NCBI RefSeq assembly: GCF_965208355.1
Contig: NZ_CBDBOM010000003.1
Span: 1,297,339-1,361,338 of the forward strand
Direction: 5' to 3'
DNA: 64,000 bases
Source of the DNA: Candidatus Poriferisocius sp.
GTDB lineage: Bacteria; Actinomycetota; Acidimicrobiia; Acidimicrobiales; Bin134
This document shows, in pieces, positions 1-14,029 of this stretch (position 1 is its first letter; each line of letters begins with the position of its first letter). The notes below the pieces were generated by a model, which saw only the letters and a list, made by a program, of their open reading frames with translations, had not been told where the DNA came from and did not search any database. Both the position numbers and the translations under genes were made by a program.

Positions 1-207
1 TCGCCGGCTCGCACCCGTCCCGAACCGGACAGCGGAACGATGGCGGTCTCCCGGTCGGTCTCGGACCCCGACCACGGGTCCGCTGGGGTTAGCTCCACCA
101 CCGAGAAGGCCACGTTGTCCCACCCGGCCGAATCTGGCGTTACGTCCACAATCCGCCCCGGTCCCGGCTGGGGTCGGATGGGTCCTGATGCGGGTGCGGT
201 CGCCATG
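1..207 (-). CDS. iolB: 5-deoxy-glucuronate isomerase (IolB-like), 5' part only; the gene continues past the left edge
   Basis: Absent from the ORF track because it is open at the window edge. Minus strand has GGAGG (213-217), then ATG at 207-205. My translation MATAPASGPIRPQPGPGRIVDVTPDSAGWDNVAFSVVELTPADPWSGSETDRETAIVPLSGSGRV resembles IolB N-termini. It sits at the distal end of the iol operon. Confidence 0.55.
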
Positions 208-208
208 G

Positions 209-1189
209 TCAGCCTCCTAGTCCTGCCGGCACAAGGTCTCCGGCGTCCATCTCCTGCTTGAACCGCTCCAGCAGCTCCCGATTGCCCAGAGGCTCATAGC
301 CCAAGATCTCAGTCGTGCGAGGAGTTCGCATCGTGGTGTCGTAGGGAACTCGGGCACCGCCCAGCAATGCCATCATCTCCGGGTCGGGCGGCACCGAACG
401 GAGCAGCGACGGGTCGTGGCCGAACACCTCGCAGGCCATCTGGGCCAGTTCCATCCTCCCAGCCGGCTCGGCCCCGCAGCAGTGGAAGATGCCATCGGCA
501 TCGCCATCTGACGCCATCAACCACATGACTTCGGCGCACTCGCTGGCCAGGCTGGGGGTGGCCGTCATGTTGATGTCGTCGCCCTCCCACACCCCGAACG
601 GTTCCCCTTGAGAAACGGCATCGAGCACCGTGGTCACGAAGTAGCCGAAACCGGGGTCTTGGCCCCGTGGCATCTCGTCGCGGGCCCAGTGGACCCCGTT
701 GACTGCCGATACTCGGGCCACGGCGGCTCGGTCGGCCCGCAGCAGGGCAGCTTGCTCGCTCAGGGCCTTCAGCACGCCGTAGTAGTTCACCGGGTTGGGT
801 GGGGTGTGCTCGTCGGCCCCGGATTGGGTTCCGTCGAACACCCAGTCGGTGGAAACCAATATGAGCTTGGCTCCGGCTCGGTTGGCTGCCTCCGCCAAAG
901 TGAGGGTGGCATCCACATAGCTGCGCCAGGCCAAATCCCGCTGGGCGTAGATCCCGGCCAAGTCGTTGAGGATCATGGAGTGGACGATCACGTCGGGGTC
1001 GAATTGGGCCACGCTGGCCAGCACCGCGTCGGCCTCGAGCAAATCCAGCGGCTCTGTGGTGTAGCCCTGGGGGTTGTCGGGCACGAAGGTGTGGATTGGA
1101 CAGTGAACGGTGGCGCGGTGGCGCTCGGCGAACACCTTGACGATGTTGGAGCCGAGGAATCCGGTGCCCCCGGTGACATAGGCCCGCAC
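209..1189 (-). CDS. NAD-dependent epimerase/dehydratase, RmlD-like extended SDR
   Basis: Rossmann start VTGGTGFLGSN. STDWVFDG and YGVLK (YxxxK) motifs are typical of the dTDP-4-dehydrorhamnose reductase-like family. GTG start with GGGAG upstream. The stop abuts the iolB RBS. Confidence 0.7.
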   Translation of the reverse strand: MRAYVTGGTGFLGSNIVKVFAERHRATVHCPIHTFVPDNPQGYTTEPLDLLEADAVLASVAQFDPDVIVHSMILNDLAGIYAQRDLAWRSYVDATLTLAEAANRAGAKLILVSTDWVFDGTQSGADEHTPPNPVNYYGVLKALSEQAALLRADRAAVARVSAVNGVHWARDEMPRGQDPGFGYFVTTVLDAVSQGEPFGVWEGDDINMTATPSLASECAEVMWLMASDGDADGIFHCCGAEPAGRMELAQMACEVFGHDPSLLRSVPPDPEMMALLGGARVPYDTTMRTPRTTEILGYEPLGNRELLERFKQEMDAGDLVPAGLGG

Positions 1190-1245: not shown

Positions 1246-2253
1246 CTAGCCGATCTCGTCGATGCGCACGGGCCGCTGTTCTCTTACCGAGCGCCATGCG
1301 GCCAGTCCGATGACCAAGGGAGCCCGCCCGTCGGCCAAGGTGACCGGCGAGGGTGTGCCATCCATCATGTCGGCGAAGGCGGCCCATTCAGCCAGGTAGG
1401 AGGGGATGTACCGCTCCAAGAAGAAATAGGGCAGCGTCGGGCTGTGCGACCCGTCGGCTGTTCGGGTTACCGCAGTGGCGGTTAGGGGGTTCTCAGAGGC
1501 GGCCATTCCCGCGGAGCCAAACGCTTCCACTCGCTGGTCGTAGCCGTACACCGCCTGGCGGCTGTTGTCGATGGTGCTGATGGCGCCGTTTTCGTGAGTG
1601 CAAACGATCACTGCGGTGTCGAGGTCGCCTACTTCTCCGATGGCCTCGTCGACCCGAACCGCTCCGGTGGCGTATACCTCGGTCACCTCGCTCCCGGTGA
1701 TGAAGCGGATCATGTCGAAATCGTGGATGGTCATGTCGCAGAAGATCCCGCCGGACTCATCCAGATACATCAGCGGAGGGGGCTCGGGGTCGCGGCTGGA
1801 CACGCGCACCAGATGGACGTCGCCCAGTTCGCCCTCGGCCACTCGGTCGTGTACGTAGCGGTGGCTGGGGTCGAAGCGGCGGTTGAATCCCACTTGCACC
1901 GGGATCCCTGCGGCCTCTGCCGCGGCGATACCCCGATCGACGTCGGCAAGGTTGAGGGCCAGCGGCTTTTCCACAAAGGCGGCCTTGCCGGCCTCAGCCG
2001 CAGCCACCAGGAGGTCGATATGGGTGTGGGTGGAGGAGCAGATGGCCACCGCGTCCACGTCGTCGGCCTTCAAGATCTCCTCGGGAGCTGCGGCATGGCG
2101 CGCTCCCAATTCCTCGGCAACCGCGGCCGCAGCGGCGTCTACCACGTCGTAGACAGCAGCCAACTCGGCGCTGGGCACCTGCTTGGCGATCAGCTCGGCA
2201 TGCATCCGCCCTATCCGCCCGCAGCCCAGCACCCCGATGCGCACCGGGCTCAT
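1246..2253 (-). CDS. iolG: Gfo/Idh/MocA oxidoreductase, probable myo-inositol 2-dehydrogenase
   Basis: RIGVLGCGRIGRMHA dinucleotide fold, FVEKPLA (EKP motif), GFNRRFDP. iol context. 4-nt start/stop overlap with the upstream gene. Confidence 0.7.
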   Translation of the reverse strand: MSPVRIGVLGCGRIGRMHAELIAKQVPSAELAAVYDVVDAAAAAVAEELGARHAAAPEEILKADDVDAVAICSSTHTHIDLLVAAAEAGKAAFVEKPLALNLADVDRGIAAAEAAGIPVQVGFNRRFDPSHRYVHDRVAEGELGDVHLVRVSSRDPEPPPLMYLDESGGIFCDMTIHDFDMIRFITGSEVTEVYATGAVRVDEAIGEVGDLDTAVIVCTHENGAISTIDNSRQAVYGYDQRVEAFGSAGMAASENPLTATAVTRTADGSHSPTLPYFFLERYIPSYLAEWAAFADMMDGTPSPVTLADGRAPLVIGLAAWRSVREQRPVRIDEIG

Positions 2254-3680
2254 GATCCGGTCCCCTTGGATTCAGATTGCAGGCTCGAGACCACTCGGCC
2301 GTTGCGTATCTCCACGGGGTACAAGGTAAGGGGATCGGTGGCCGGAAACCGAACCGCCTCGCCGGTTCGAAGGTCGAATCGGCCGTTGTGCTTGGGGCAC
2401 TCCACCAGGCAGTCGAGCACCAAACCCTCGGCCAGATAGGCCTGGCCGTGGGTGCAGAGCCCTTCGGTGCACACCAGGGTGCCGTCGTCCAGTCGGAAGA
2501 GGGCGTAAGTCTCGTCGCCCACTTCGAATTGTCGGGCCGAACCAGGGGCCAGCGCGTTGGCCGGGCCGAGGTCGAACAACCCGTCGTGGCGGTCGCCGGC
2601 CCACACAGTGTGTCCGGTGTTGACAAATGAGCGTCCAGCGTCGGACACCGCGGGAACGTCGTCGCGGGGCTCGTCATAGGCCGGATTGCGCCATTGCCGG
2701 CGCAGGGTGGACAGGATGCGCCGGTAGGCCGACCAGGTATTGGGCGAAGCCGGGGCCAGATATACCTTGACCTCTTGGTGAAGGGCGGGCAGGGAGTAGT
2801 AGGGCACAGTGGGGAAGATGTGGTGCTCCACGTGGTAGTTCATGTTGGAGTACAAGAACCGGAAGACGGGGTTCATATACACCGTGCGGGTGTTGAGGCG
2901 GTGGTCGAGCACGTCCTCGCGCAGCCCGGCGTGCTGGGTGATGGCGAAGAACACCATCAGCCAGGCACCGTAAATGGTGGGCAGCCCGACGTAGAGCAAC
3001 GGCACGATGGACCAAATCGCGATCGACCATGCCGTCACTCCGGCCAAGATGGCGATGTAGGCCCGCGACTCCCACTTCAGCTTTCCGAGCTCGTCGACGG
3101 GGATGAACGAGCGGGCCTCGTCGTCGATGCGCCCAATGGCGTGCTTGGCGGTGCGCACCACCATGTTGGGCACGTTCATCACCGGCACGAACAGCAGCGC
3201 AATGGAGGTGGGTGAGGAGGGGCGGGGAAAGATGATCTCGGCGTCTCGGCCCACCACGATGGTGTCGGTGTGGTGACGGACATGCGACCAGCGCCACAAG
3301 GTGGGCTGGCGCAGCAGCATGAACGAGGCCAAGTAGTACACCACGTCGTTGAGCCACTTGGTCTTGAAGGCGGTACCGTGCCCGCACTCATGCCAGCGGG
3401 AGTCGCCTGCTCCGCCGTAGAGGGCGCCGTAGGCGGCGAAGGCCGGGACTGCCCACCAAGTGCCCAGCGATAAGAAGGCCAGATAGCCGAACCCGGCCAA
3501 AAGGCCGAGCCAGGCGGCGGTATCGAGGGCCGCTCTGGCGTTGCCCCTTACTTGGAGTTGGCGCAGGCGCTCGGGGTCAATGGGCGGGCGGAACCACTCG
3601 GCCTCCACCAATCCGTCGGCTGTGGCCCGGTCTGCCTCGGGGCCTCCAACCCGGTAGTCGCGCCGGACGGAAGTCACCAT
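2250..3680 (-). CDS. Membrane fatty-acid-desaturase-family di-iron enzyme fused to a C-terminal Rieske [2Fe-2S] domain
   Basis: Three His boxes (HECGH, HVRHH, HVEHH) and hydrophobic segments in the N-terminal ~360 aa. The C-terminal ~100 aa carries CTHGQAYL...(x)...CPKHNGRFD, i.e. CxH...CxxH. Overlaps iolD (ATGGTGA) and iolG (4 nt). Confidence 0.75.
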   Translation of the reverse strand: MVTSVRRDYRVGGPEADRATADGLVEAEWFRPPIDPERLRQLQVRGNARAALDTAAWLGLLAGFGYLAFLSLGTWWAVPAFAAYGALYGGAGDSRWHECGHGTAFKTKWLNDVVYYLASFMLLRQPTLWRWSHVRHHTDTIVVGRDAEIIFPRPSSPTSIALLFVPVMNVPNMVVRTAKHAIGRIDDEARSFIPVDELGKLKWESRAYIAILAGVTAWSIAIWSIVPLLYVGLPTIYGAWLMVFFAITQHAGLREDVLDHRLNTRTVYMNPVFRFLYSNMNYHVEHHIFPTVPYYSLPALHQEVKVYLAPASPNTWSAYRRILSTLRRQWRNPAYDEPRDDVPAVSDAGRSFVNTGHTVWAGDRHDGLFDLGPANALAPGSARQFEVGDETYALFRLDDGTLVCTEGLCTHGQAYLAEGLVLDCLVECPKHNGRFDLRTGEAVRFPATDPLTLYPVEIRNGRVVSSLQSESKGTGS

Positions 3681-5566
3681 CCCACGCGTTGATCGGCTTT
3701 GCCGGAGTCCATGGCGGCCCGGGCGGCCCGCACATCGGGGCTGGTGCTCACCTCGGGCACGCCAACCTCCCAGAACGAGCCGCCCTCGGTCCAGCGGTAT
3801 GCGTGGGTGTTCAGGGCGATCACATAAGTGCTTTCGGCGGCTCGGGCACGGCCGAACGCGGCTTCGAGTTCGGCGATGGACGTCACGGTCTCTGTTTCGC
3901 AGCCCATGGAGCCGGCGTGGGCTGCGAAGTCAACCGCCGCTGGCTCCTGCACTCGGGAGTCGGCGATGAGGTTGTTGAACGGCACCCCGCCTTGGGCCAA
4001 TTGCAGGCGGTTGATCACCGCGTAGCCGCCGTTGTCGCACACGATGACGATGAGCTTGTGGCCGGTGAGCACCGTGCTATAGAGATCGCTGTTCATCATC
4101 AGGTAGGAGCCGTCGCCTACCAGCACCACCACCTCTCGGTCGGGCAGGGCCATCTTTGCCCCCCACCCGCCGGAGATCTCGTAGCCCATGCAGGAGTATC
4201 CGTATTCGCAGTCGAAGGAGTGAACGGTTTGGCCCCGCCATCCGTTGACCAGCTCGCCGGGGAAACCTCCGGCCGCGGCCAGCACATAGGTGGACTCGTC
4301 GGCGAGCCGGTCCACCACCCCCACCACCTGGGCATAGGTGGGGAGTTCGTCGTCGGAGATGTCGGAATCGCCAGAGGACCCACCGGCCGATGCCACCGTC
4401 TCGGGGGCGGCGATCTTGTCGATGTAGGCGTGGTACTGCGAGGTCTCCGAAGAGGCCCGGTCAGACCATTCCTCTGGGGCTCGGTAGTCGGCCAGCGCAT
4501 CGCCCAATTCGGCCAGGCCTTCGCGGGCGTCGGCCACCAGGGGCAGCGACCGGTGCTTGGAGGCGTCGAAACGAGCCGCGTTCAAGCCGATGATCTGCAC
4601 GTCGTCGCCCCCGGCGAAAACCGTCCACGATCCGGTGACGAAGTCGCCCAGGCGGGTGCCCACCGCCAATACCGCATCGGCCTCGGCGGCCATGGCGTTA
4701 GCCGACGTGCAGCCGGTGACCCCGATGGGACCGCAGTTGAGCGGGTGGTCAGCCACAAACGAGGTGCGACCGGCCACCGTTTCCACCACCGGGATGTTGT
4801 GAGCCTCGGCGAAGGTTCGTAGCCGGTCTTCGGCCAGCGACCAGTGAACCCCCCCGCCGGCCACGATGAGGGGTCGCTTCGCAGCAGCCAGGGCAGCCGC
4901 CGCTCGGCGCAATTGGCCGGTGTCAGGGCGGGGGCGGCTGATCTCGTGGACGGCCTGCTCGAATAAGCGGGAGGGGAAGTCGAAGGCCTCGCCTTGGACG
5001 TCTTGGGGGAGGCTGATGAAGGCCGGGCCGCAGTCGCCGGGGTCGAGCATGACGCCGAGGGCGTTGGGCAGCGAGTGAACCAACTGCTCCGGCGTGGTGA
5101 TGCGGTCCCAATAGCGGACGACGGGCTTGAAGGCGTCGTTGACCGTCACCGTCGGGTCGCCGAAGTGCTCCACTTGCTGAAGCACCGGGTCGGGTATGCG
5201 GCTGTTGAAGGTATCGCCGGCCAGCAGAAGCAGCGGCATTCTGTTGGCCATGGCTACTGCGGCTGCGGTCACCATGTTGGTGGCACCGGGGCCGATGGAG
5301 CTGGTGGCGGCCATGATGCGGCGGCGGCGGTTGGCCTTGGCGTAGGCCACCGCGGCCAGGGCCATGCCTTGCTCGTTCTGACCCCGCCAGGTGGGCAGCG
5401 CCTCCCCGGCCTGCTCCAGCTCGTGGCCCAAACAGGTGACGTTGCCGTGGCCGAAGATGGCGAACACGCCGGCGAAGAGGGGAACGGTCTGGCCATCGAT
5501 CTCGATTCGCTGCGCGGCCAGGTAGCGCACGATGGCCCCGGAAGTTGTCATTCGGACGGTTTCCAT
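3674..5566 (-). CDS. iolD: 3D-(3,5/4)-trihydroxycyclohexane-1,2-dione acylhydrolase, ThDP-dependent
   Basis: 630 aa ThDP-enzyme architecture, GDGSYLMMNSDL ThDP/Mg motif, IolD-like N-terminus VRMTTSGAIVRYLAAQ. iol context. Confidence 0.8.
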   Translation of the reverse strand: METVRMTTSGAIVRYLAAQRIEIDGQTVPLFAGVFAIFGHGNVTCLGHELEQAGEALPTWRGQNEQGMALAAVAYAKANRRRRIMAATSSIGPGATNMVTAAAVAMANRMPLLLLAGDTFNSRIPDPVLQQVEHFGDPTVTVNDAFKPVVRYWDRITTPEQLVHSLPNALGVMLDPGDCGPAFISLPQDVQGEAFDFPSRLFEQAVHEISRPRPDTGQLRRAAAALAAAKRPLIVAGGGVHWSLAEDRLRTFAEAHNIPVVETVAGRTSFVADHPLNCGPIGVTGCTSANAMAAEADAVLAVGTRLGDFVTGSWTVFAGGDDVQIIGLNAARFDASKHRSLPLVADAREGLAELGDALADYRAPEEWSDRASSETSQYHAYIDKIAAPETVASAGGSSGDSDISDDELPTYAQVVGVVDRLADESTYVLAAAGGFPGELVNGWRGQTVHSFDCEYGYSCMGYEISGGWGAKMALPDREVVVLVGDGSYLMMNSDLYSTVLTGHKLIVIVCDNGGYAVINRLQLAQGGVPFNNLIADSRVQEPAAVDFAAHAGSMGCETETVTSIAELEAAFGRARAAESTYVIALNTHAYRWTEGGSFWEVGVPEVSTSPDVRAARAAMDSGKADQRVGW

Positions 5567-5579
5567 GGCTGCCCTCCCT

Positions 5580-6755
5580 TCACTCGATCTCTAGCGATAC
5601 CACATCTTCCCAGGCACCGGTCTCCCAGCTTTTCAGCATGGCGGCTTGCACGCTCACACAGGCCAGAGCCTGCTCCATGCCCGCGCTGTGGGGTCGGCCC
5701 TCGGCCACTGCGGTTAGGAACTCGTGGTCCTGGATGGTCACCATGTCCTCGAAGCCGATGGAGTTGGCGTCGCCGGGCACGAAAGCGCCGTGATAGGGGT
5801 GGCGTTCGCTGGCCCGCACGGTGGTGTAGCCCTGCTGGGGGTCGGATGCCCTGAACAACTGGAGCTCGTTCAGGGTCTCGTGGTTCCAGCTCAGCGCACC
5901 CTCGGTGCCGTAAATGTCAAAGGCCATCTGGCTCTGGGGGCCGACGATGGCCCTACTTGATTCGAACACGCCGTGGCTGCCGTTGGCGAACACGGCTAGC
6001 GCGGCGAAGTAGTCCTCGTTGGTGACCTCCCCAGTCGGGTCGCCGGGGCTGCCTCGGTCGTAGTGGGTGCCGGCTCCCGAGGGAAGCGGGCGCTCCTTGA
6101 TGAAGGTCTCCCCGATGCCCACCACCCGGGAAATGGGACCGTTGAGCATCAAAGCCAGGTCCACCGCGTGGCTCAGAATGTCGGTGGTGGCGCCGTGACC
6201 GGCCTGGTCGATCAGAAAACGCCAGGAGAGCAGGCCCATGGGGTCGGCCCCATACATGGAGAAGAACCGGCCCCGATAGTTGGAGATCTGCCCCAGCTGA
6301 CCGGTGGCGATTAGCTCTCGGGCGTAGAGCACCAGGGGAGCGAAGCGGTAGTTGTAGCCCACCCCGGTGACTATCCCGGCTTGGCGGCAGGCATGGGCGA
6401 TTCGGGCGGTTTGGCTGGGGGTGCCTCCCACCGGCTTCTCGCAGAACACGTGCTTTCCGGCTTCGGCAGCCGCCGTGGCCAATGGCTCGTGCAGCATGTT
6501 GGGAGCGCAGACAACGACAACATCCACGTCGGGATGCTCGACTGCGGGCTCCCAGTCTTCGGTGGCCTCCCGGAAACCGAAGGTACTAACCGCCGCATGG
6601 CGGCGGGACTCCACGTTGTCGGAGCAGATCACCAAGTCCACGTCGTAGGCCCGATCCTCGAATAGCGTGGGCAGCCGCAGGTAGGAGCGGGTGTGGGCCT
6701 GGCCCATCCAGCCGAAGCCCACCACGGCCAGCCCGAGTCGCTTTGGGGAGGTCAT
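5580..6755 (-). CDS. Gfo/Idh/MocA family oxidoreductase (second dehydrogenase in the iol locus)
   Basis: LGLAVVGFGWMGQAH Rossmann start, FCEKPV, GYNYRF. 4-nt overlap with the upstream gene. Confidence 0.7.
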   Translation of the reverse strand: MTSPKRLGLAVVGFGWMGQAHTRSYLRLPTLFEDRAYDVDLVICSDNVESRRHAAVSTFGFREATEDWEPAVEHPDVDVVVVCAPNMLHEPLATAAAEAGKHVFCEKPVGGTPSQTARIAHACRQAGIVTGVGYNYRFAPLVLYARELIATGQLGQISNYRGRFFSMYGADPMGLLSWRFLIDQAGHGATTDILSHAVDLALMLNGPISRVVGIGETFIKERPLPSGAGTHYDRGSPGDPTGEVTNEDYFAALAVFANGSHGVFESSRAIVGPQSQMAFDIYGTEGALSWNHETLNELQLFRASDPQQGYTTVRASERHPYHGAFVPGDANSIGFEDMVTIQDHEFLTAVAEGRPHSAGMEQALACVSVQAAMLKSWETGAWEDVVSLEIE

Positions 6756-7717
6756 GACCCGGTCCCTACCCGGCGGTCCACTCCCGGATGGGCTGCGGCA
6801 GGGTCGAGCAGGTGCTCGGGTATTCCGCCCCGCAGCCAGGCGAGAGCCTGGTCCAGCGCTTGGCCTATCAGCCTGACGATGCCCACTGTGGTGGTCGAGG
6901 CCACATGGGGGGTGACGACCACATTGATGCGGCCCAGCAGGGGATGGTCGGGGGGCAGCGGCTCAGGTTCGGTGACGTCGAGGCCCGCGCCGGCCACGAG
7001 ACCCGAGTCGAGGGCGGCCAACAGGGCTTCTTGGTCCAGCAATGTCCCCCGAGCGCAATTGATGATGATCACGCCGGGGCGCATGGCAGCCAGCGAATTC
7101 GAGTTGATGATGTGGTGGGTCTCGGGGGTGGCCGGCGCGTGCAGCGACACCACGTCGGCCTCGCCCCATAGATGGTCTAGGCCGACCAACTCGCCCACGG
7201 GAGAGACCTCCAGATAGGGGTCGTAGACCAGAACCCTCATCCCCAATGCCTCGGCGTAACCCCCCAGAAGGGAGCCGATCCGCCCGCAGCCCACCAAACC
7301 CAGCACTCGCCCGTCCAACTCCAGCGCGCCGGGGCCAGTAAGTCGGCCAGGGCCACCCGCGGTACCGGCAGCCAGACGTGCTTCTGAGCCCTTGAGCCGT
7401 TTGGCCACCGCCAGCATCAACGCCAGGGCGTGCTCGGCGGTGGAAACCGTGGGGGCGTCGGGGGTGTTGGTGGCGGCCACCCCGTGGGCCGCGCAGGCAG
7501 CGACGTCCACGTTGTCGTAGCCGATGCCCGAGCGGGCCACCACCTTGAGATTGGGCAGCCGGCGGCAGGCATCGTCGTCCCACGGCCGGTCGGCGGCCAC
7601 CACCACGCCGTCGGCGTGCTCTGGGCCGTCAACCAACTCAACGTCGGGGGGAATAACCAATTCAGATGGGGGAGTGCGGTCGATCCAGATCCGGATCTTG
7701 TTGTCTGATCTGGTCAT
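6752..7717 (-). CDS. D-isomer-specific 2-hydroxyacid dehydrogenase family protein
   Basis: GLVGCGRIGS NAD motif, ARG...D and PH(V/I)AS catalytic region (VVTPHVAST). I moved the start to MTRSDNKIRIW (7717). The longer track ORF (to 7921) would overlap iolC and has an Arg/Pro/Trp-rich non-protein-like N-terminus. Confidence 0.7.
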   Translation of the reverse strand: MTRSDNKIRIWIDRTPPSELVIPPDVELVDGPEHADGVVVAADRPWDDDACRRLPNLKVVARSGIGYDNVDVAACAAHGVAATNTPDAPTVSTAEHALALMLAVAKRLKGSEARLAAGTAGGPGRLTGPGALELDGRVLGLVGCGRIGSLLGGYAEALGMRVLVYDPYLEVSPVGELVGLDHLWGEADVVSLHAPATPETHHIINSNSLAAMRPGVIIINCARGTLLDQEALLAALDSGLVAGAGLDVTEPEPLPPDHPLLGRINVVVTPHVASTTTVGIVRLIGQALDQALAWLRGGIPEHLLDPAAAHPGVDRRVGTGS

Positions 7718-7751
7718 GCTCCGGCCTCGCCGGTGAAATCTGTTGGAGCGA

Positions 7752-8711
7752 TCATTGTCCTCGGGCCAGCATCTCGTCGATCTCCGCAGGGGTGGGCATG
7801 GCGTCAGAACAGGCCAGGCGACCAGCCACGATAGCCCCGGCGGCGTTGGCCCGAGTGACGATTTCAACCGGGTCGAGGCCCGCCAGCAGCCCATCGGCCA
7901 GCGACCCTCCGAAGGCGTCACCGGCGCCGAGGCCGCATACCACCTCCACTGGCATGGGGCGCACCTCGGCGCGGCTCTCTGGGGTGGCGACCAGCACGCC
8001 GTCGGCCCCCTGTTTCACTATGGCCAGCGACACTCCTCGATCCAGCAACCGATCGGCGGCGGTATGGGGATCGGAGGTGCCGATGGCAATTTCGCACTCG
8101 GTGCGATTGCCCACCGCCACGGTGGCCAATTCGACGGCCTGACCGATGTGGGTCCCGGCCTCTTGGGGGGAGTTCCAGAAGCTGGGGCGGTAGTCCAAGT
8201 CGAGCACGGTGTGGGGACGGCGATTCCGCCGGTCGAGTACCTCCATCACGGTGGAGCGGGACGGTTCTTGGGCGAAGCGGGATCCGGCCGTCCACAGCAC
8301 GGGTACCTCGTCGGCAATATTGGGGACATCGGCAGGCCGCAGGTTCATCTCCGGGCCGCGGGGCTCGCGATAGAACAGAAGCGGCGGATCGGTCGGGGGG
8401 TCGAGGGCGCAGAAGGCCAACGCGGTGCGCAGGTCGGGATCGGTGGTCACATAGCGGTTGTCCACCCCGAACTTCTCGGCCAGATCGGCCCGGATGTACT
8501 CGCCGAAGCCGTCGTCTCCCACCCGGGTCACCACCGCGGCCCTTCGTCCCAATCGCGCGCAGGCCACGGCCACGTTGGTGGGCGATCCGCCAATCGACTT
8601 GGCGAAAGTCTGGACCTTGCTCAGTGGAACACCGCTCTGCTGGGGATACAGATCGACGCTGACCCGTCCGATGGTCAGCACTTCGAGATCGGTTGCCTGG
8701 GTCTCAGCCAC
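7752..8711 (-). CDS. iolC: 5-dehydro-2-deoxygluconokinase (PfkB family)
   Basis: PfkB sugar kinase fold with C-terminal GLGAGDAFGG motif. iol context. Confidence 0.7.
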   Translation of the reverse strand: MAETQATDLEVLTIGRVSVDLYPQQSGVPLSKVQTFAKSIGGSPTNVAVACARLGRRAAVVTRVGDDGFGEYIRADLAEKFGVDNRYVTTDPDLRTALAFCALDPPTDPPLLFYREPRGPEMNLRPADVPNIADEVPVLWTAGSRFAQEPSRSTVMEVLDRRNRRPHTVLDLDYRPSFWNSPQEAGTHIGQAVELATVAVGNRTECEIAIGTSDPHTAADRLLDRGVSLAIVKQGADGVLVATPESRAEVRPMPVEVVCGLGAGDAFGGSLADGLLAGLDPVEIVTRANAAGAIVAGRLACSDAMPTPAEIDEMLARGQ

Positions 8712-8743: not shown

Positions 8744-9523
8744 CTATGTGCCGGCTTGAGCCAGCTCGTGCTGAAGGGCGTCTAGTTCCGCGCCACCGGC
8801 CATGAGCTGGGTCAGATCGGTCTGAGACAGCTCTTCTTTGGCCCAATTGCCCATGGACACGCCCCGGTTGAGGATCACGAAACGGTCGCCCACCGGATAG
8901 GCGTGGTTGGGGTTGTGGGTGATGAAGATGACCGCCAAGCCCTGGTCCCGGGCTTCAATGATGCGCCGCAGCACCACCCCCGACTGCTTCACCCCCAGCG
9001 CTGAGGTGGGCTCGTCGAGGATCAACACCCGGGCGCCGAAATAGCTGGCCCGGGCGATGGCCACCGACTGCCTTTCGCCGCCGGAGAGCGTGCCCACGGG
9101 CTGTTCGACGTCGCGGATGTCGATGCCCATCTTGGCCATCTCTTCTTTGGCGATGCGCTTGGCCCCCTCGATGTCGATCTGGCGGAAGGGCCAGATGCCG
9201 GTCTTGGGCTCGGCACCGAGGAAGAAGTTCCGCCATACCGACATCAGCGGGACAATGGCCAAGTCCTGGTACACGGTGGCGATGCCTCGGGCCAGAGCTT
9301 CGCGGGGCGAGTTGAAGCGCACGTCTTCGCCTTCCATGCGCAATGTGCCCTCGTCGTGCTGGTGCACGCCGGCCAGGATCTTGATGAACGTGGACTTGCC
9401 CGCGCCATTGTCACCCAACACGCAGGTGACCTCGCCGGGGTTCACCGTGGTGCTCACCCCGGTTAGGGCGATGATGTTCCCGTAGAACTTCGAGATGTTG
9501 TTCAGTTCGAGGAAGTCGGCCAT
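8744..9523 (-). CDS. Sugar ABC transporter ATP-binding protein (single NBD)
   Basis: Walker [10 protein letters not shown], signature LSGGERQ, Walker B LILDEPT. Confidence 0.85.
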
Positions 9524-9575
9524 CAGCAGGTCTCCTTGAGGTTCTTGGTAGTCCGTTTGGTTTGCCGCGAGATAG

Positions 9576-11804
9576 TCATCGGACCTTCTCCGCTTGAGAG
9601 CGCACGTAGTTGTTGACCAGCACCGCCACCAGCAGCAAGGCGCCCAATACCAGGAAGCGCCAGTCGCTGTTCCATGTGGCGAAACCGATGCCGGAGGTGA
9701 TCATGCCCCAGATAACCGCGCCGATAGCCGCGCCGATAGCCGATCCGTAGCCGCCGGTGAGCAGGCAGCCGCCGACCACCGCCACGATGATGTAGCGGAA
9801 CTCGTTTCCGTCGCCCACGTTGGCTTGCACCGAATTGAGCCGGAAGGCGATCACCATGCCGGTGACCCAGGCCGACGCCGAAACCAGCATGAACAGCGTG
9901 GTCTTGGTGCGGGCCGCAGGCACACCCACCGAGCGGGAAGCATCCTTGTTGCCGCCCACCGCAAAGATCCAGTTGCCGAACTGGGTGCGGGCCAGTACCC
10001 AGGCCCCCAACACGGCAAACAACAAGAACAACATCACGCCGACGCCGAATCGGGTCTCGGCCCGGGTAGCGGCCAATTCCTCACTGGTGATGAACATCAG
10101 CTTGGCCGCTATGCCCAGCATGACTGATCCGAGCCCGACGAAGACCAGCGAACGGCCCACGCTCTCATCGGAGGTGAACAGCGTGCGGAAGAGGGTGGCC
10201 AGGGCGAAGACCGCAAATGCGACGATGCCACCCTTGGCCACCGCCATGATGATGCTGTAGAGAATTCCGTCGCCGTCGGCCAATTCCAAGACCAATGACA
10301 CCAGCCCCGCGGCCAATCCGAGCACTGTCCCTATTTGTCGAGCGAGGGGTCCGTGAATCGGAGGTGGTGGGGCACTTGTGCGCCGAGCTGCGATCAGCCC
10401 GGCGACGGCGGAGGCGGCCAGTAGGAGAGCGATCAACAGCAGCGCGGTGAACAGCTCCACCCGCAGCTTGCGGGAATCTGCTTCCGACTGGATAAAGAAA
10501 GCCAGAATCACGATACCCACCGAGGTGAGGAGGGTGAACAGCGCCGCCAGGCCGCGGCGCCGGGCGGCAATGCTGAGCAGCACCACCCCGGCGATGGCCA
10601 AGATGCCGAACAGGATGGCCCGGGCGCCCTGCACGGTGATCATGTAGCTGACGCCGGGGACGAGGGCAATGAGCGCACCGATGGCGGGGTATCCCACGCT
10701 GACCCGGCCCAGTGCGGCCAGCACGGCCAACACCCCAGTGGCGCCGATGCCGATGGCCAAAACGGCACGGCCCGGCGTGCCGGTCAAGAAGTCGAGGCGA
10801 TCGGCGTTGCTGGAGTCCATGACCGCGGCGATCAAAATGGCTCCGATGATGGCCACAACCCCGGCGATCAGGAATTGGACCACCCTCGGGTCGTGTTCTG
10901 TAGGGGCTGGTTCTCGCTCAGCTGGTTGGTAGCGGGCCAAGCACCAGCCAGCCACCCCCACCAGCACTCCCGCTCCAGTAATGATTCCGAATACCCAGTT
11001 GGAGCTCTTGCTGTCTTGGTTGAGCAAAAGGATGTAGCCGATGGCGCCAACGGCCGCACCGATCGCCGAGATCAGGTATCCGCCCATGTTGGGCTTCTCG
11101 CGTCGGGCGTAGGCCAACTCCATGGTGCCCAAGATCAAGACGACCGCGCCGATGATGAGCAGGCCGCTCCAGGCCCAGTCTCGATCGTCCCAGATGTGAC
11201 CGTTTCGGACCCAGGTGGCACCGAAGATGTTGTCCCAGAACTCATAGCCGCCCGAGCGGTCGAGACCCTCGGCGATCACTTTGTTGGTGAACAGCTTGGT
11301 GAAGCCCAGTTTGGCCCCGATGAGGATGAAGAATGTGCCCAGGGTGACGATGAAGCTGGGCAACGAGGTCTTGTCCACCAGCGTCCCGTTGAACCAGCCG
11401 ATGGCCAAGGCAAAGGCCAAGGAGAGCGGGACCGCAAGGTGAAGGCTGAGCCCGGCACCGCCCAACTCGGCGGTGTCGCTGCTCAACAAAACCACAATTA
11501 CCGCGGTGGCCCCAGTCATGGAGCCCGAGGAGAGGTCGAATTCACCCCCGATCATCAAAAGGGCCACCGGTATTGCCATCAAGCCGAGGGTGGCGGCCAC
11601 GTCCAGGTAGTTGGCCGTGCCCCCTGCGGTGCCAAATGGCGCTGACACCAGCCAGAACAAGAGCCAAACGCCGACTGCGCCGATGAGCGCGCCGATCTCC
11701 GGTCTGGTCAGCAGTTGTTGGACCGGGCCTCGATGGGCTAGTCGCTCGTCTTCAACCGGCGGCAAGCTGTCCGCAGTATCAGTCGTAGTGGTCGCTTCGG
11801 CCAC
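9576..11804 (-). CDS. CUT2 (RbsC/AraH-type) ABC permease with a very large internal hydrophobic insertion
   Basis: N-terminal [10 protein letters not shown] and SFIVTLGT motifs and C-terminal [14 protein letters not shown] ... [12 protein letters not shown] motifs of ribose-type permeases are separated by ~400 extra, mostly hydrophobic residues. GTG start after GAGGGGGGA. Confidence 0.7.
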
Positions 11805-11872
11805 GAGAGTCCCCCCTCTATACCTGGGCGATATACCCGGCCAATGAATTTTGTTGACTATAAGCGAAACGC

Positions 11873-11936
11873 AAGGAGCGCTGCCCGGATACCCGGGCAG
11901 CGCTCCTTATTTCTTGCGACGCGCTCAGCGTCGCAA
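11873..11936 (-). promoter_or_regulatory. Two strong intercistronic stem-loops between the binding-protein gene and the permease gene
   Basis: Perfect 16-bp stem AAGGAGCGCTGCCCGG/CCGGGCAGCGCTCCTT with a 4-nt loop (11873-11908). Perfect 9-bp stem TTGCGACGC/GCGTCGCAA with a 5-nt loop (11914-11936). Confidence 0.6.
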
Positions 11937-11950
11937 ATCAGTTTTTGGGA

Positions 11951-12994
11951 TTATCGGGTTCCCTGGGACACCAGTGCCTTGACGTCCGCCGCGTTGGCGG
12001 TGTCGACGAAGCCAGGACCGGTGAGGATGGGCAAGCCGCCGCCCGCGGTGTTGAGGTTGGTGGCTTGCAGGTGCATCAGGATGACCGGCAGGTAGCCCTG
12101 GAGGTACTGCTGCTGGTCGACGGTGAAGGCCACGTTGCCCTGCTCAATCTGATCGATGAGGTCGCTGGACAGGTCGAAGCCGCCGATGATGAGTTCCCGT
12201 CCGGCTTGCTCACCGGCAGCCAGGGCCCGCAGGGGCAAGTTCGGTCCTACACCCAGAACAGCATCGATTGTTGGATCACCCTGTAGGCGAGCAGCGATAT
12301 TGTTCTGCTGCTCATCGGGGGTGGCGTCGAGTCCGACGAACTCCGAGGTCACCTGGCCGTTGAAGGTTTCGGCCAAGCCATTGCAGCGCTCTTCCAGAGC
12401 CACGTTGGTCTGCTCCTGGCGGGCGCAGAGCACGTGGGTGGCACCCAGAGCGTTGAACCGCTCGCCGGCGCCGTTACCGGCCACGGTCTCGGTTTGCCCG
12501 ATGTGGGTGGTCGCGCCCAGGGCCTTGTAGTTGTTCACACCAGAGTTGAGCGTGTATAGCGGAATGCCCGCGGCGACAACGGCCTCAGCAGCCGACTGGA
12601 CGCCGGCCGGGTCGGCCAGCGAGATGGCGATACCGCTGGAGCCGGCGGCGATGGCCGCCTCAATCTCCTGGGCTTGCCTCAAGGCGTCGTTGTTGGAGCC
12701 GAAGTAGACGACGTCGCAACCGATGGCTGCGGCGGCGTCGCGCACGGCCACCTCGACCACTGACCAGAAGGTGCCGGAGTCACCGTGGGTGATGACGTGG
12801 TAGGTGTGGTCGCAACCCTGGGTGGGGTCGACTTCCACGGCCTCCGTCGGCGCTGGAGCTTCAGTGGCTGGTGCCGCTGCTTCGGTAGGTGCGCTGGGTG
12901 CAGGCTCGCTGGAGTCATCGTCGTCGTTGCCGCAGGCTGCGGCTACGAGCGTGAACGCCAGGAGCAAAGCAAACAGCTTCCATAGCTTTCTCAT
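11951..12994 (-). CDS. Sugar/inositol ABC transporter substrate-binding lipoprotein
   Basis: Signal peptide plus lipobox (LVAAAC), acidic Pro/Ala/Glu tether, then a periplasmic-binding-protein type I fold (YFGSNND..., GFDLS). Start set at MRKLWKLF. Confidence 0.75.
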   Translation of the reverse strand: MRKLWKLFALLLAFTLVAAACGNDDDDSSEPAPSAPTEAAAPATEAPAPTEAVEVDPTQGCDHTYHVITHGDSGTFWSVVEVAVRDAAAAIGCDVVYFGSNNDALRQAQEIEAAIAAGSSGIAISLADPAGVQSAAEAVVAAGIPLYTLNSGVNNYKALGATTHIGQTETVAGNGAGERFNALGATHVLCARQEQTNVALEERCNGLAETFNGQVTSEFVGLDATPDEQQNNIAARLQGDPTIDAVLGVGPNLPLRALAAGEQAGRELIIGGFDLSSDLIDQIEQGNVAFTVDQQQYLQGYLPVILMHLQATNLNTAGGGLPILTGPGFVDTANAADVKALVSQGTR

Positions 12995-13022
12995 TATTGA
13001 ATTACCCCTCTCAAGGTAGTTG

Positions 13023-13937
13023 TCATTGGTTTTGTGAGGTTCCGGCACCCGCGAGTACGGGTTCCAGACTGCGCAGGAAATCGATGCTCTGGCGGGCGTC
13101 GAACCTCAGCCGAGCTACCGCAGAGGGATCATCCTCTGAGATTGCCGCATCCTGCTCCAGGACGTACCAGAGGTCGCGTCCTGTCTTTTCAAGGAGGTCG
13201 ACGATCTCGGTGATCGGCAGCCCTCCCTGACCTAGCGGCGGGAACAAGCCACGCTGTACGCCCTCCATGAGCGACAGCTCTCCCGCCATGACCTGGGCAG
13301 CGATGCCCAGGTCGACGTCTTTGATGTGCACAAGTGCAATGCGATCCAGATAGCGCTTGGTCATGTCCAGGACGTCAGCGCCCCCTAACAGAAAGTGCGC
13401 GGTGTCGAGCACCAGAGCGGTATTGCTGATTTCCAGGATGCGCTCGGCCTCCTCTGCGGTCTCCACCAGGCATCCGAAGTGGGCGTGCAGAGCCTGAGTC
13501 AGACCATGGTCGCTGGCCACTCGTCCTACTTCGGCCAGAGCGTCGGCCACGATTTGCCATTCGTGATCGGCCAACGGCTCTTGGCGCCAGTCGTCCAAGT
13601 GGCTGACCACACAAGTGACGAAGAAGCGACCGCCTCCACCGGCGATCAGCGCCGCAGACTCAGCAGCCGAGGCCAGGCTGTCCTCGGCAAGAAGGGGATC
13701 GTGCAAAACCAGGGGTACGAAGCCCCCGAGCAGCGACAATTTGTGGAGCTCGAGTACGGCTCGCAGATCGCCGGGATCGGTGGGCAAATACCCCAGTGAC
13801 CCAAGCTCAGTATGGGTGAATCCGGCGCTGGACATCTCCGTCAGGACGGCTTCAACAGGAAGCTGAAATCCCCAGCCGGGCATCTCGCACACACCCCAAC
13901 TGATGGGCGCGGTCGCGGTTCGCTCAAACAGTGTCAT
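13023..13937 (-). CDS. Xylose-isomerase-like TIM-barrel protein, IolE (inosose dehydratase)-like
   Basis: Sugar phosphate isomerase/epimerase fold. LVLDTAHFLL...VHIKDV resembles the IolE DTGH...VHFKDV region. Start set at MTLFERTA. Confidence 0.55.
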   Translation of the reverse strand: MTLFERTATAPISWGVCEMPGWGFQLPVEAVLTEMSSAGFTHTELGSLGYLPTDPGDLRAVLELHKLSLLGGFVPLVLHDPLLAEDSLASAAESAALIAGGGGRFFVTCVVSHLDDWRQEPLADHEWQIVADALAEVGRVASDHGLTQALHAHFGCLVETAEEAERILEISNTALVLDTAHFLLGGADVLDMTKRYLDRIALVHIKDVDLGIAAQVMAGELSLMEGVQRGLFPPLGQGGLPITEIVDLLEKTGRDLWYVLEQDAAISEDDPSAVARLRFDARQSIDFLRSLEPVLAGAGTSQNQ

Positions 13938-14029
13938 GTGCGCGCCGGATCCCCTTCTTCGCGCCCCTCCAATGCCCCATTTTGCTAGTGATCTTGCCAA
14001 ATGGTCAAGCCGAAATTTCCCAAATGGCT

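Follow-up and report, generated by a model that had tools for sequence, protein, structure and literature searches.

What is a membrane-bound, desaturase-like oxygenase doing inside an operon for inositol breakdown? The question is raised by a 64,000-nucleotide stretch of DNA (hereafter the window) from the actinobacterium Candidatus Poriferisocius sp. (contig NZ_CBDBOM010000003.1, positions 1,297,339 to 1,361,338), in which a single gene on the minus strand (2250..3680) encodes a membrane di-iron domain and a Rieske ferredoxin domain in one polypeptide, wedged between the inositol catabolic genes iolD and iolG. The two domains are homologous to MocD and MocE, which together with MocF have been assigned to the O-demethylation of rhizopine by a genetic model of 1998, as cited in later papers (PMC13434037; PMC10107442). 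We propose that this gene on balance probably encodes a single-chain MocD-MocE oxygenase that removes the methyl group of O-methyl-inositols, yielding inositol and formaldehyde.

A MocD-MocE fusion gene coupled to iolD and iolG

The open reading frame (ORF) specifies 476 amino acids, and both of its Pfam matches lie far beyond chance: FA_desaturase (PF00487) at residues 74-314 (E 2.5e-35, 122.9 bits against a cut-off of 29.7) and Rieske (PF00355) at residues 372-455 (E 3.5e-16, 59.3 bits against a cut-off of 20.3). The MocD-like membrane di-iron oxygenase domain spans residues 1 to ~345 (2646..3680; this and all further genes and gene parts of the window discussed are on the minus strand) and carries three histidine boxes, HECGH (residues 97-101, 3378..3392), HVRHH (residues 133-137, 3270..3284) and HVEHH (residues 283-287, 2820..2834). 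The Rieske [2Fe-2S] ferredoxin domain, with the stop codon, occupies the remainder (residues ~366-476, 2250..2585), its cluster ligands being C409 and H411 in the motif CTH (residues 409-411, nt 2448-2456) and C428 and H431 in the motif CPKH (residues 428-431, nt 2388-2399). Across an alignment of 133 sequences the eight canonical histidines (H97, H101, H133, H136, H137, H283, H286 and H287) are invariant, as are E98, H250, H260 and H301 and all four Rieske ligands. The single fused frame is no assembly artefact, for 41 independent loci contain this two-domain ORF without a break.

Both ends of the gene overlap its neighbours. Read from the sequence as its reverse complement, the ATG of the fusion overlaps the TGA of iolD within ATGGTGA (3674..3680), and the TGA of the fusion overlaps the ATG of iolG within ATGA (2250..2253), with a Shine-Dalgarno-like AAGGGG run 11-16 nt 5' of the iolG start. 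A sequence-only reading of this DNA, made before the present analysis, had described a 476-residue membrane di-iron oxygenase with three histidine boxes and a C-terminal Rieske ferredoxin, tightly coupled to iolD and iolG through overlapping start and stop codons, and had named a profile search as a check of the Rieske-like motif; the translation, the Pfam matches, the ligands and the two overlaps bear this description out.

The homology to Moc proteins extends over the whole polypeptide. In a tblastn search against plasmids, the fusion protein (P0001) could be aligned colinearly, along 97-99% of its length, with sets of three adjacent genes on 485 plasmid records, mostly of Rhizobium, Sinorhizobium and Burkholderia, that are annotated as 'fatty acid desaturase family protein', 'MocE family 2Fe-2S ferredoxin' and 'FAD-dependent oxidoreductase'. 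A canonical rhizopine locus was found on plasmid pPR12A203 of Rhizobium indicum (L107), where the gene order is IolE-type MocC, Gfo/Idh/MocA-family MocA, binding protein, MocR, MocD, MocE and MocF; its regulator scores above the MocR equivalog cut-off (739 bits against 650), and its MocE above that of the MocE family TIGR02377 (178 bits against 136). The fusion is 46% identical to this MocD over 338 aa (E 8e-105) and 48% identical to this MocE, and similar figures were obtained with the LacI-linked paralogue on pRL11 of R. johnstonii 3841 (48% identity for its MocD homologue). TIGR02377 is also the best NCBIfam match of the C-terminal domain of the fusion (87.1 bits, positions 16-98 of 101). 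For MocD there is no curated model, and the MocD of the rhizopine locus gave no NCBIfam family match at E 1e-10.

The rhizobial moc locus resembles the fusion gene and its setting in the three histidine boxes, the MocE-type Rieske domain, the order of genes or domains and the link to inositol catabolism, MocA resembling IolG and MocC resembling IolE. In contrast, MocD and MocE are separate proteins there and one polypeptide here, and the fusion lacks an adjacent MocF, MocR, PanB-like protein or PurU and lies instead inside a full actinobacterial iol operon. In the rhizopine locus, mocF is followed by genes for a PanB-like hydroxymethyltransferase and for PurU (formyl-tetrahydrofolate deformylase, 428 bits; L107:11747-13483). 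Such genes are to be expected beside mocF if a methyl group is released; we read the pair as one-carbon handling, of a type also found next to other demethylases, and take it as independent support for methyl release. Near the fused loci no PurU gene was detected, and a PanB-like gene was seen at 4 of 80 loci. A PanB-like gene also lies 3' of mocDEF-like genes on R. johnstonii pRL11 (L001:11672-12487) and at three alphaproteobacterial loci (L060, L071 and L075).

The pRL11 genes belong to a group of LacI-linked mocDEF-like clusters (others lie on S. meliloti pSymB, in P. syringae as mocDEF-xylA2, and elsewhere in rhizobia and Burkholderia) that encode the same three functions at 44-48% identity, accompanied by sugar-type regulators and a TIM-barrel partner. 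They differ from the fusion in consisting of three separate genes, in having their own reductase and in lying outside iol operons. This LacI-regulated cluster, which is distinct from the rare rhizopine locus, is near-universal on S. meliloti pSymB (L106) and on plasmids of the R. leguminosarum group (L001); records at 80-100% identity number 85 for Sinorhizobium and 144 for Rhizobium.

An AlphaFold2 model built from the 133-sequence alignment reached a predicted local distance difference test score (pLDDT) of 93.6 and a predicted template modelling score (pTM) of 0.88, as compared with a pLDDT of 65 from an earlier 15-sequence alignment. Model and hydropathy agree on about four hydrophobic helices, at approximately residues 48-70, 77-100, 195-221 and 226-250. 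In a fold search with the model, residues 26-337 matched the desaturase-like chain 8xks_K (Z 20.4, root-mean-square deviation (rmsd) 3.6 over 298 residues), with FtAlkB (8sbb_A; Z 12.2, rmsd 4.8 over 269 residues, 15% identity) a weaker match and stearoyl-CoA desaturase (4ymk; Z 5.9) weaker still. Residues 365-473 matched Rieske ferredoxins of ring dioxygenases, namely TodB (Z 18.4, rmsd 1.4 over 105 residues) and the ferredoxin of naphthalene dioxygenase (NDO; Z 17.9). The N-terminal domain had no sequence match in the PDB at E 0.01, AlkB included; the Rieske part alone has PDB relatives by sequence. The helices and the hydropathy are consistent with the four-helix topology expected from the family, which would place the histidine boxes on the cytoplasmic side of the membrane and hence the Rieske domain there too; the latter is joined to the membrane di-iron domain via a linker of ~20 residues.

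Family architectures and linkage to iol operons

A survey of the family in species-representative genomes allowed 78 of 80 loci to be assigned to one of three architectures. Separate MocD and MocE genes, mostly with MocF directly after, are found at 22 loci (Burkholderia, Cohnella, Labrys, Roseiarcus and a few Acidimicrobiia), and two-domain fusions of 460-500 aa at 41. The other 15 (L048, L051, L057-L059, L062, L064, L065, L068, L070, L073, L074, L076, L084 and L086; for example L058:10001-12247) encode three-domain MocD-MocE-FNR fusions of ~745 aa that end in a reductase module (FAD_binding_6/NAD_binding_1) and belong to Verrucomicrobiota, Planctomycetota, Acidobacteriota, Bacteroidota and Chloroflexota. 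The first two domains of these longer proteins are like those of the window protein (44-47% identity, same ligands); they differ in the added reductase domain, which makes them truly self-sufficient, in forming a separate clade, and in showing no iol linkage in the loci examined.

When MocD domains were compared in a quick maximum-likelihood tree, the actinobacterial two-domain fusions fell into a single clade (37 rows, including the window protein; support of 97 in the Shimodaira-Hasegawa-like approximate likelihood-ratio test, SH-aLRT) and the three-domain forms into another (17 rows; SH-aLRT 99), with only five changes of architecture on the whole tree. The nearest relatives of the fusion are annotated as Candidatus Poriferisocius and other sponge-derived Acidimicrobiia. 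The family at large comprises more than 7,700 clusters at 90% identity, and its MocD-type proteins are commonly mislabelled 'fatty acid desaturase' or 'NqrF', the latter being the Joint Genome Institute (JGI) name of many members.

Linkage to inositol catabolism was scored by the presence, within 10 kb, of orthologues (at least 45% identity) of the genes in the iol operon of the window. By this measure 19 of the 36 actinobacterial fusion-clade loci (L007-L016, L021-L024, L027-L029, L036 and L037), distributed across at least five subclades, are linked to iol genes. Of 301 Acidimicrobiia genomes sampled evenly, 23 have IolD (a count that includes one unpublished genome, G254) and nine have MocD-like genes, five of them fused and four split. 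Four of the five fusion carriers (G000, G043, G167 and G271) have iolD within ~1 kb. All four of these iol-embedded cases fall in the taxonomic order of the window organism, where the operon contains the fusion in 4 of 7 IolD-positive genomes, as against 0 of 16 in other orders. As the sampled genomes are related to one another, these co-occurrence counts are descriptive and carry no statistical test.

Other members of the same order (G191 and G079), and 16 genomes of other orders, have an operon of otherwise the same genes minus the fusion, in which iolD is followed by a gene for a 271-aa short-chain dehydrogenase/reductase (SDR) and then by iolG. Because such fusion-free iol operons exist, the fusion is an accessory module, inserted optionally between iolD and iolG. 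The sequence-only reading had held that the oxygenase is foreign to the canonical Iol pathway, which is supported, and had taken orthologues that are never linked to iol genes as a refutation, which the repeated linkage runs against. The 271-aa classical SDR stands directly 3' of iolD in related Acidimicrobiia with or without the fusion (L102:9469-10284, L091:9836-10651) and is absent from that position in the window.

Elsewhere the fusions and their relatives keep different company: a translationally adjoining major facilitator superfamily (MFS) transporter (L017/L090), an Abhydrolase_3 esterase in Nocardioides, LacI or AraC regulators, MIP channels, divergent TIM barrels of the xylose-isomerase fold and an aldose epimerase. 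When 115 genes flanking the 63 loci that lack iol genes were tallied by Pfam family, no single partner emerged. Given such variety, substrates probably differ between subgroups, and the family as a whole is probably sugar- or cyclitol-flavoured without being specific for one compound.

The divergent TIM barrels (AP_endonuc_2), which fall into two sequence families, recur beside split and three-domain forms of MocDE(F) (L058:12252-13061, L062, L063, L072, L074, L055, L084, L051 and L048; also L001:6848-7660, L060, L067, L078 and L080-L083), which suggests a conserved second step after the oxygenase. One fusion (L026) comes from a 5.7-kb contig (CALQEM020000224.1; 61% GC) of a metagenome-assembled genome labelled Bifidobacterium breve; it groups with Nocardioides (support 100), and the contig is probably mis-binned.

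The surrounding operon and the supply of electrons

The fusion lies in a 13-gene minus-strand operon that holds a complete IolG/E/D/B/C/J set and an importer. In the direction of transcription, a HAD hydrolase gene is followed by the gene for an IolE-like TIM barrel of the xylose-isomerase fold (13023..14000; Pfam AP_endonuc_2), which at 150 bits stays below the TIGR04379 cut-off of 290 and is the sole IolE-like gene detected in the genome. Next come an ATP-binding cassette (ABC) importer (8744..13048, comprising binding protein 11951-13048, permease 9576-11804 and ATPase 8744-9523), iolC (7752..8711; TIGR04382, 343 bits against a cut-off of 300), a gene of the D-2-hydroxyacid dehydrogenase family (6752..7921, its true start probably more downstream) and a second Gfo/Idh/MocA dehydrogenase gene (5580..6755), which also adjoins iolD in related fusion-free operons. 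Then follow iolD itself (3674..5566; TIGR04377, 841 bits against 715), the fusion, and iolG, for inositol 2-dehydrogenase (1246..2253; TIGR04380, 411 bits against 355). The operon is completed by an RmlD-like SDR gene (209-1189, within the stretch 1..1189), by iolB, whose 5' part lies at the left window edge (in full G000:C3:1296750-1297484; 214 bits against 205), and, outside the window after iolB, by an IolJ-like aldolase gene (L089:12499-13347). The second Gfo/Idh/MocA dehydrogenase, the 2-hydroxyacid dehydrogenase and the SDR were considered as partners specific to the fusion and rejected, as they are present also in fusion-free operons.

The nearest solved structure to the binding protein is 4RU1 (4ru1_A, E 7.5e-55), an Acidothermus protein described as a component of a verified myo-inositol transporter (PMC10747050). 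The permease ORF (9576-11804) is 742 aa long and matches BPD_transp_2 only at residues 462-728, leaving a long N-terminal extension. Between the binding-protein and permease genes (11872-11936) lie a strong GC-rich hairpin of 16-17 bp and a second hairpin of 9 bp, together the sole conspicuous terminator-like structure inside the operon; in a scan of the operon for promoters and terminators, sites were no more frequent than expected by chance.

The fusion of an oxygenase with its ferredoxin had been taken, in the sequence-only reading, to make the enzyme self-sufficient. The fusion is not self-sufficient, because a Rieske ferredoxin still needs an NAD(P)H:ferredoxin reductase, and the operon encodes none. 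Nor was a MocF-type reductase found within 10 kb of any of the 36 actinobacterial fusion-clade loci; in split systems the reductase is a separate gene (MocF), and in other phyla it is the third fused domain. The genome encodes a single MocF/HcaD-like ferredoxin reductase, the HcaD-type FAD protein P0127 (G000:C3:577257-578252), ~720 kb from the operon, which has Pyr_redox_2 and Reductase_C domains and is 43% identical to the MocF-like protein of pRL11. Its gene stands alone among thiolase-like and TetR/MerR genes (L006:8246-9445). There is no in-frame ATG, GTG or TTG upstream of its Rossmann motif, and its start is probably a CTG 10 nt after a GAGGAG motif.

A comparable division of labour is known from alkane and xylene monooxygenases, namely AlkB-rubredoxin (AlkG) fusions and XylM/XylA, in which a membrane di-iron oxygenase with histidine boxes is also fused to or paired with an iron-sulfur carrier, a separate reductase is still required, and the fold appears related, to judge by the FtAlkB match. 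The fusion differs from these in using a Rieske [2Fe-2S] carrier in place of rubredoxin and in its presumed substrate, a polar cyclitol, not a hydrocarbon.

The reaction proposed for the fusion

In the scheme that we favour, the inositol-type ABC importer of the operon would bring in an O-methyl-inositol, of the kind represented by pinitol, ononitol, sequoyitol or O-methyl-scyllo-inositol. Electrons from NAD(P)H would enter an FAD ferredoxin reductase made from a gene of its own, for which P0127 is the candidate, and move on to the fused Rieske cluster, the di-iron centre and O2, and the di-iron domain would hydroxylate the methyl carbon. The resulting hemiacetal would collapse spontaneously into formaldehyde and free inositol, to be oxidised by IolG, the product of the overlapping next cistron, and degraded by IolE/D/B/C/J; the fusion would thus act as an entry step that lets an ordinary iol operon handle a wider range of substrates. 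The net reaction would be that of the soluble O-demethylases (the Rieske non-haem iron enzymes VanAB and guaiacol demethylase (7qwt), and the P450s acting on 6-O-methyl-galactose), which likewise demethylate by hydroxylation with release of formaldehyde and are fed by ferredoxin and reductase. Their catalytic domains, however, are unrelated, being soluble and dependent on mononuclear iron or haem, and in contrast to soluble Rieske O-demethylases the fusion would use its Rieske domain as an electron carrier only, with catalysis assigned to the membrane di-iron domain. Consistent with such a role, mocDEF homologues of R. mesoamericanum are induced, together with iol genes, by root exudate in which pinitol is the chief component (PMC5789663).

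The same architecture and electron path might instead serve another cyclitol, with a product that also enters the iol pathway: a deoxy-inositol of the quercitol or viburnitol type or a C-methyl-inositol such as mytilitol or laminitol could be hydroxylated, or some other O-alkyl group removed. Mytilitol and laminitol are known from marine algae and invertebrates, and plant methyl-inositols may be scarce for a marine, sponge-associated organism. Hydroxylation of unactivated C-H bonds is general among membrane di-iron enzymes with this fold, the family shows weak NCBIfam matches to GntB (a hydroxylase of free L-arginine) and to carotenoid hydroxylases and ketolases, its neighbourhoods are diverse, and the operon contains three extra dehydrogenases. 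Against this, the extra dehydrogenases accompany fusion-free operons as well and so are not the fusion's specific partners, O-demethylation is the only functional assignment that the family has, and the canonical moc locus carries one-carbon genes. We therefore regard a different cyclitol substrate or reaction as possible but unlikely. A narrower form of this idea, in which the iol-embedded fusion carries out a new reaction on a marine cyclitol of sponge or algal origin, such as hydroxylation of a deoxy- or C-methyl-inositol, and not the demethylation of a methyl ether, strikes us as distinctly doubtful; if true, it would represent a new O2-dependent entry into inositol catabolism and the first membrane desaturase-fold enzyme shown to act on a free, water-soluble polyol.

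With MocD and MocE as its closest characterised homologues, the fusion could also be a true rhizopine-type demethylase, acting on 3-O-methyl-scyllo-inosamine or another aminocyclitol, and the best NCBIfam match of the operon's binding protein is indeed 'rhizopine catabolism SBP'. That match reaches only 193 of the 420 bits required, and the protein in the MocB position of the canonical locus, which is 23% identical to the window binding protein, is not matched by the model at all; the lead was rejected on these grounds. No MocR-like gene, aminotransferase or deaminase was found in or near the operon (window and L089), which makes an O-methyl-inositol more likely than an inosamine, and rhizopines are products of legume nodules and not of sponges. 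Together with the position of the fusion protein outside the rhizobial clade, this renders an aminocyclitol substrate highly improbable. No more credible is a lipid-modifying enzyme, whether it desaturates or hydroxylates fatty-acyl chains or acts on phosphatidylinositol or phosphatidylinositol mannoside (PIM) lipids, notwithstanding the Pfam FA_desaturase domain, the database name 'fatty acid desaturase', the desaturase-like 8xks_K as best structural match of the N-terminal domain and the fact that Actinobacteria make inositol lipids. The lipid-desaturase equivalogs are missed by more than 460 bits (DesB, 32.6 bits against 500; DesA, 25.5 against 500), the close relatives are all MocD-type proteins whose neighbours are catabolic genes, LacI regulators and transporters for sugars or cyclitols, the gene itself belongs to a catabolic operon through translational coupling, and we know of no lipid desaturase that uses a Rieske ferredoxin. 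The sequence-only reading had left open an inositol-derived substrate, an inositol lipid or a pathway variant; the first and last are plausible, and the precedent of MocD, MocE and MocF in rhizopine catabolism, which that reading had missed, makes the lipid option unlikely and points to O-demethylation as the hypothetical step.

Several observations weigh against O-methyl-inositol demethylation. O-methyl-inositols are familiar chiefly as land-plant compounds, and that a sponge symbiont is supplied with them is presumed; the literature on sponges or 'Poriferisocius' offered nothing usable on inositol use. The operon contains no formaldehyde or one-carbon gene, the neighbours are varied across the whole family, and in one genome with the fusion (G075, 98% complete) iolD was not detected. 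In contrast to the MocE of the rhizopine locus, the Rieske domain falls below the curated TIGR02377 cut-off (87.1 against 136.15 bits), and the actinobacterial fusion clade lies outside the rhizobial MocD clade, as sister to a clade comprising the split, rhizobial and three-domain forms. Finally, the role of MocDEF itself rests on the genetic model of 1998: a literature search on bacterial demethylases of pinitol or methyl-inositols and on MocD biochemistry returned this model and transcriptome correlations, and no assay of any MocD-family enzyme.

The MocDEF model was known already, and public databases contain fused forms that bear wrong names; no published description of a MocD-MocE fusion was found in a literature search. 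The present analysis adds a reference locus validated by its MocR and carrying PanB-like and PurU genes, a tree relating the three architectures, genome-level counts of co-occurrence, and a direct comparison with iol operons from which the insert is missing.

Methyl-inositols, pinitol and ononitol for instance, rank with the most abundant soluble carbon compounds in many plants and in root exudates, and to our knowledge no bacterial enzyme that removes the methyl group of methyl-inositols has been characterised. In a 2022 study of pinitol-degrading Erwinia, only vanillate-type demethylases were tested, and demethylation was concluded to be unnecessary (PMC9788770); MocD-type oxygenases are obvious candidates for this step. 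The iol-embedded fusion is the clearest genomic pointer to the substrate class of its family, and with one polypeptide and one reductase it offers a compact construct for the biochemistry of that family. It would add a case of membrane desaturase-fold enzymes acting on polar small molecules, and it bears on how bacteria may demethylate plant cyclitols.

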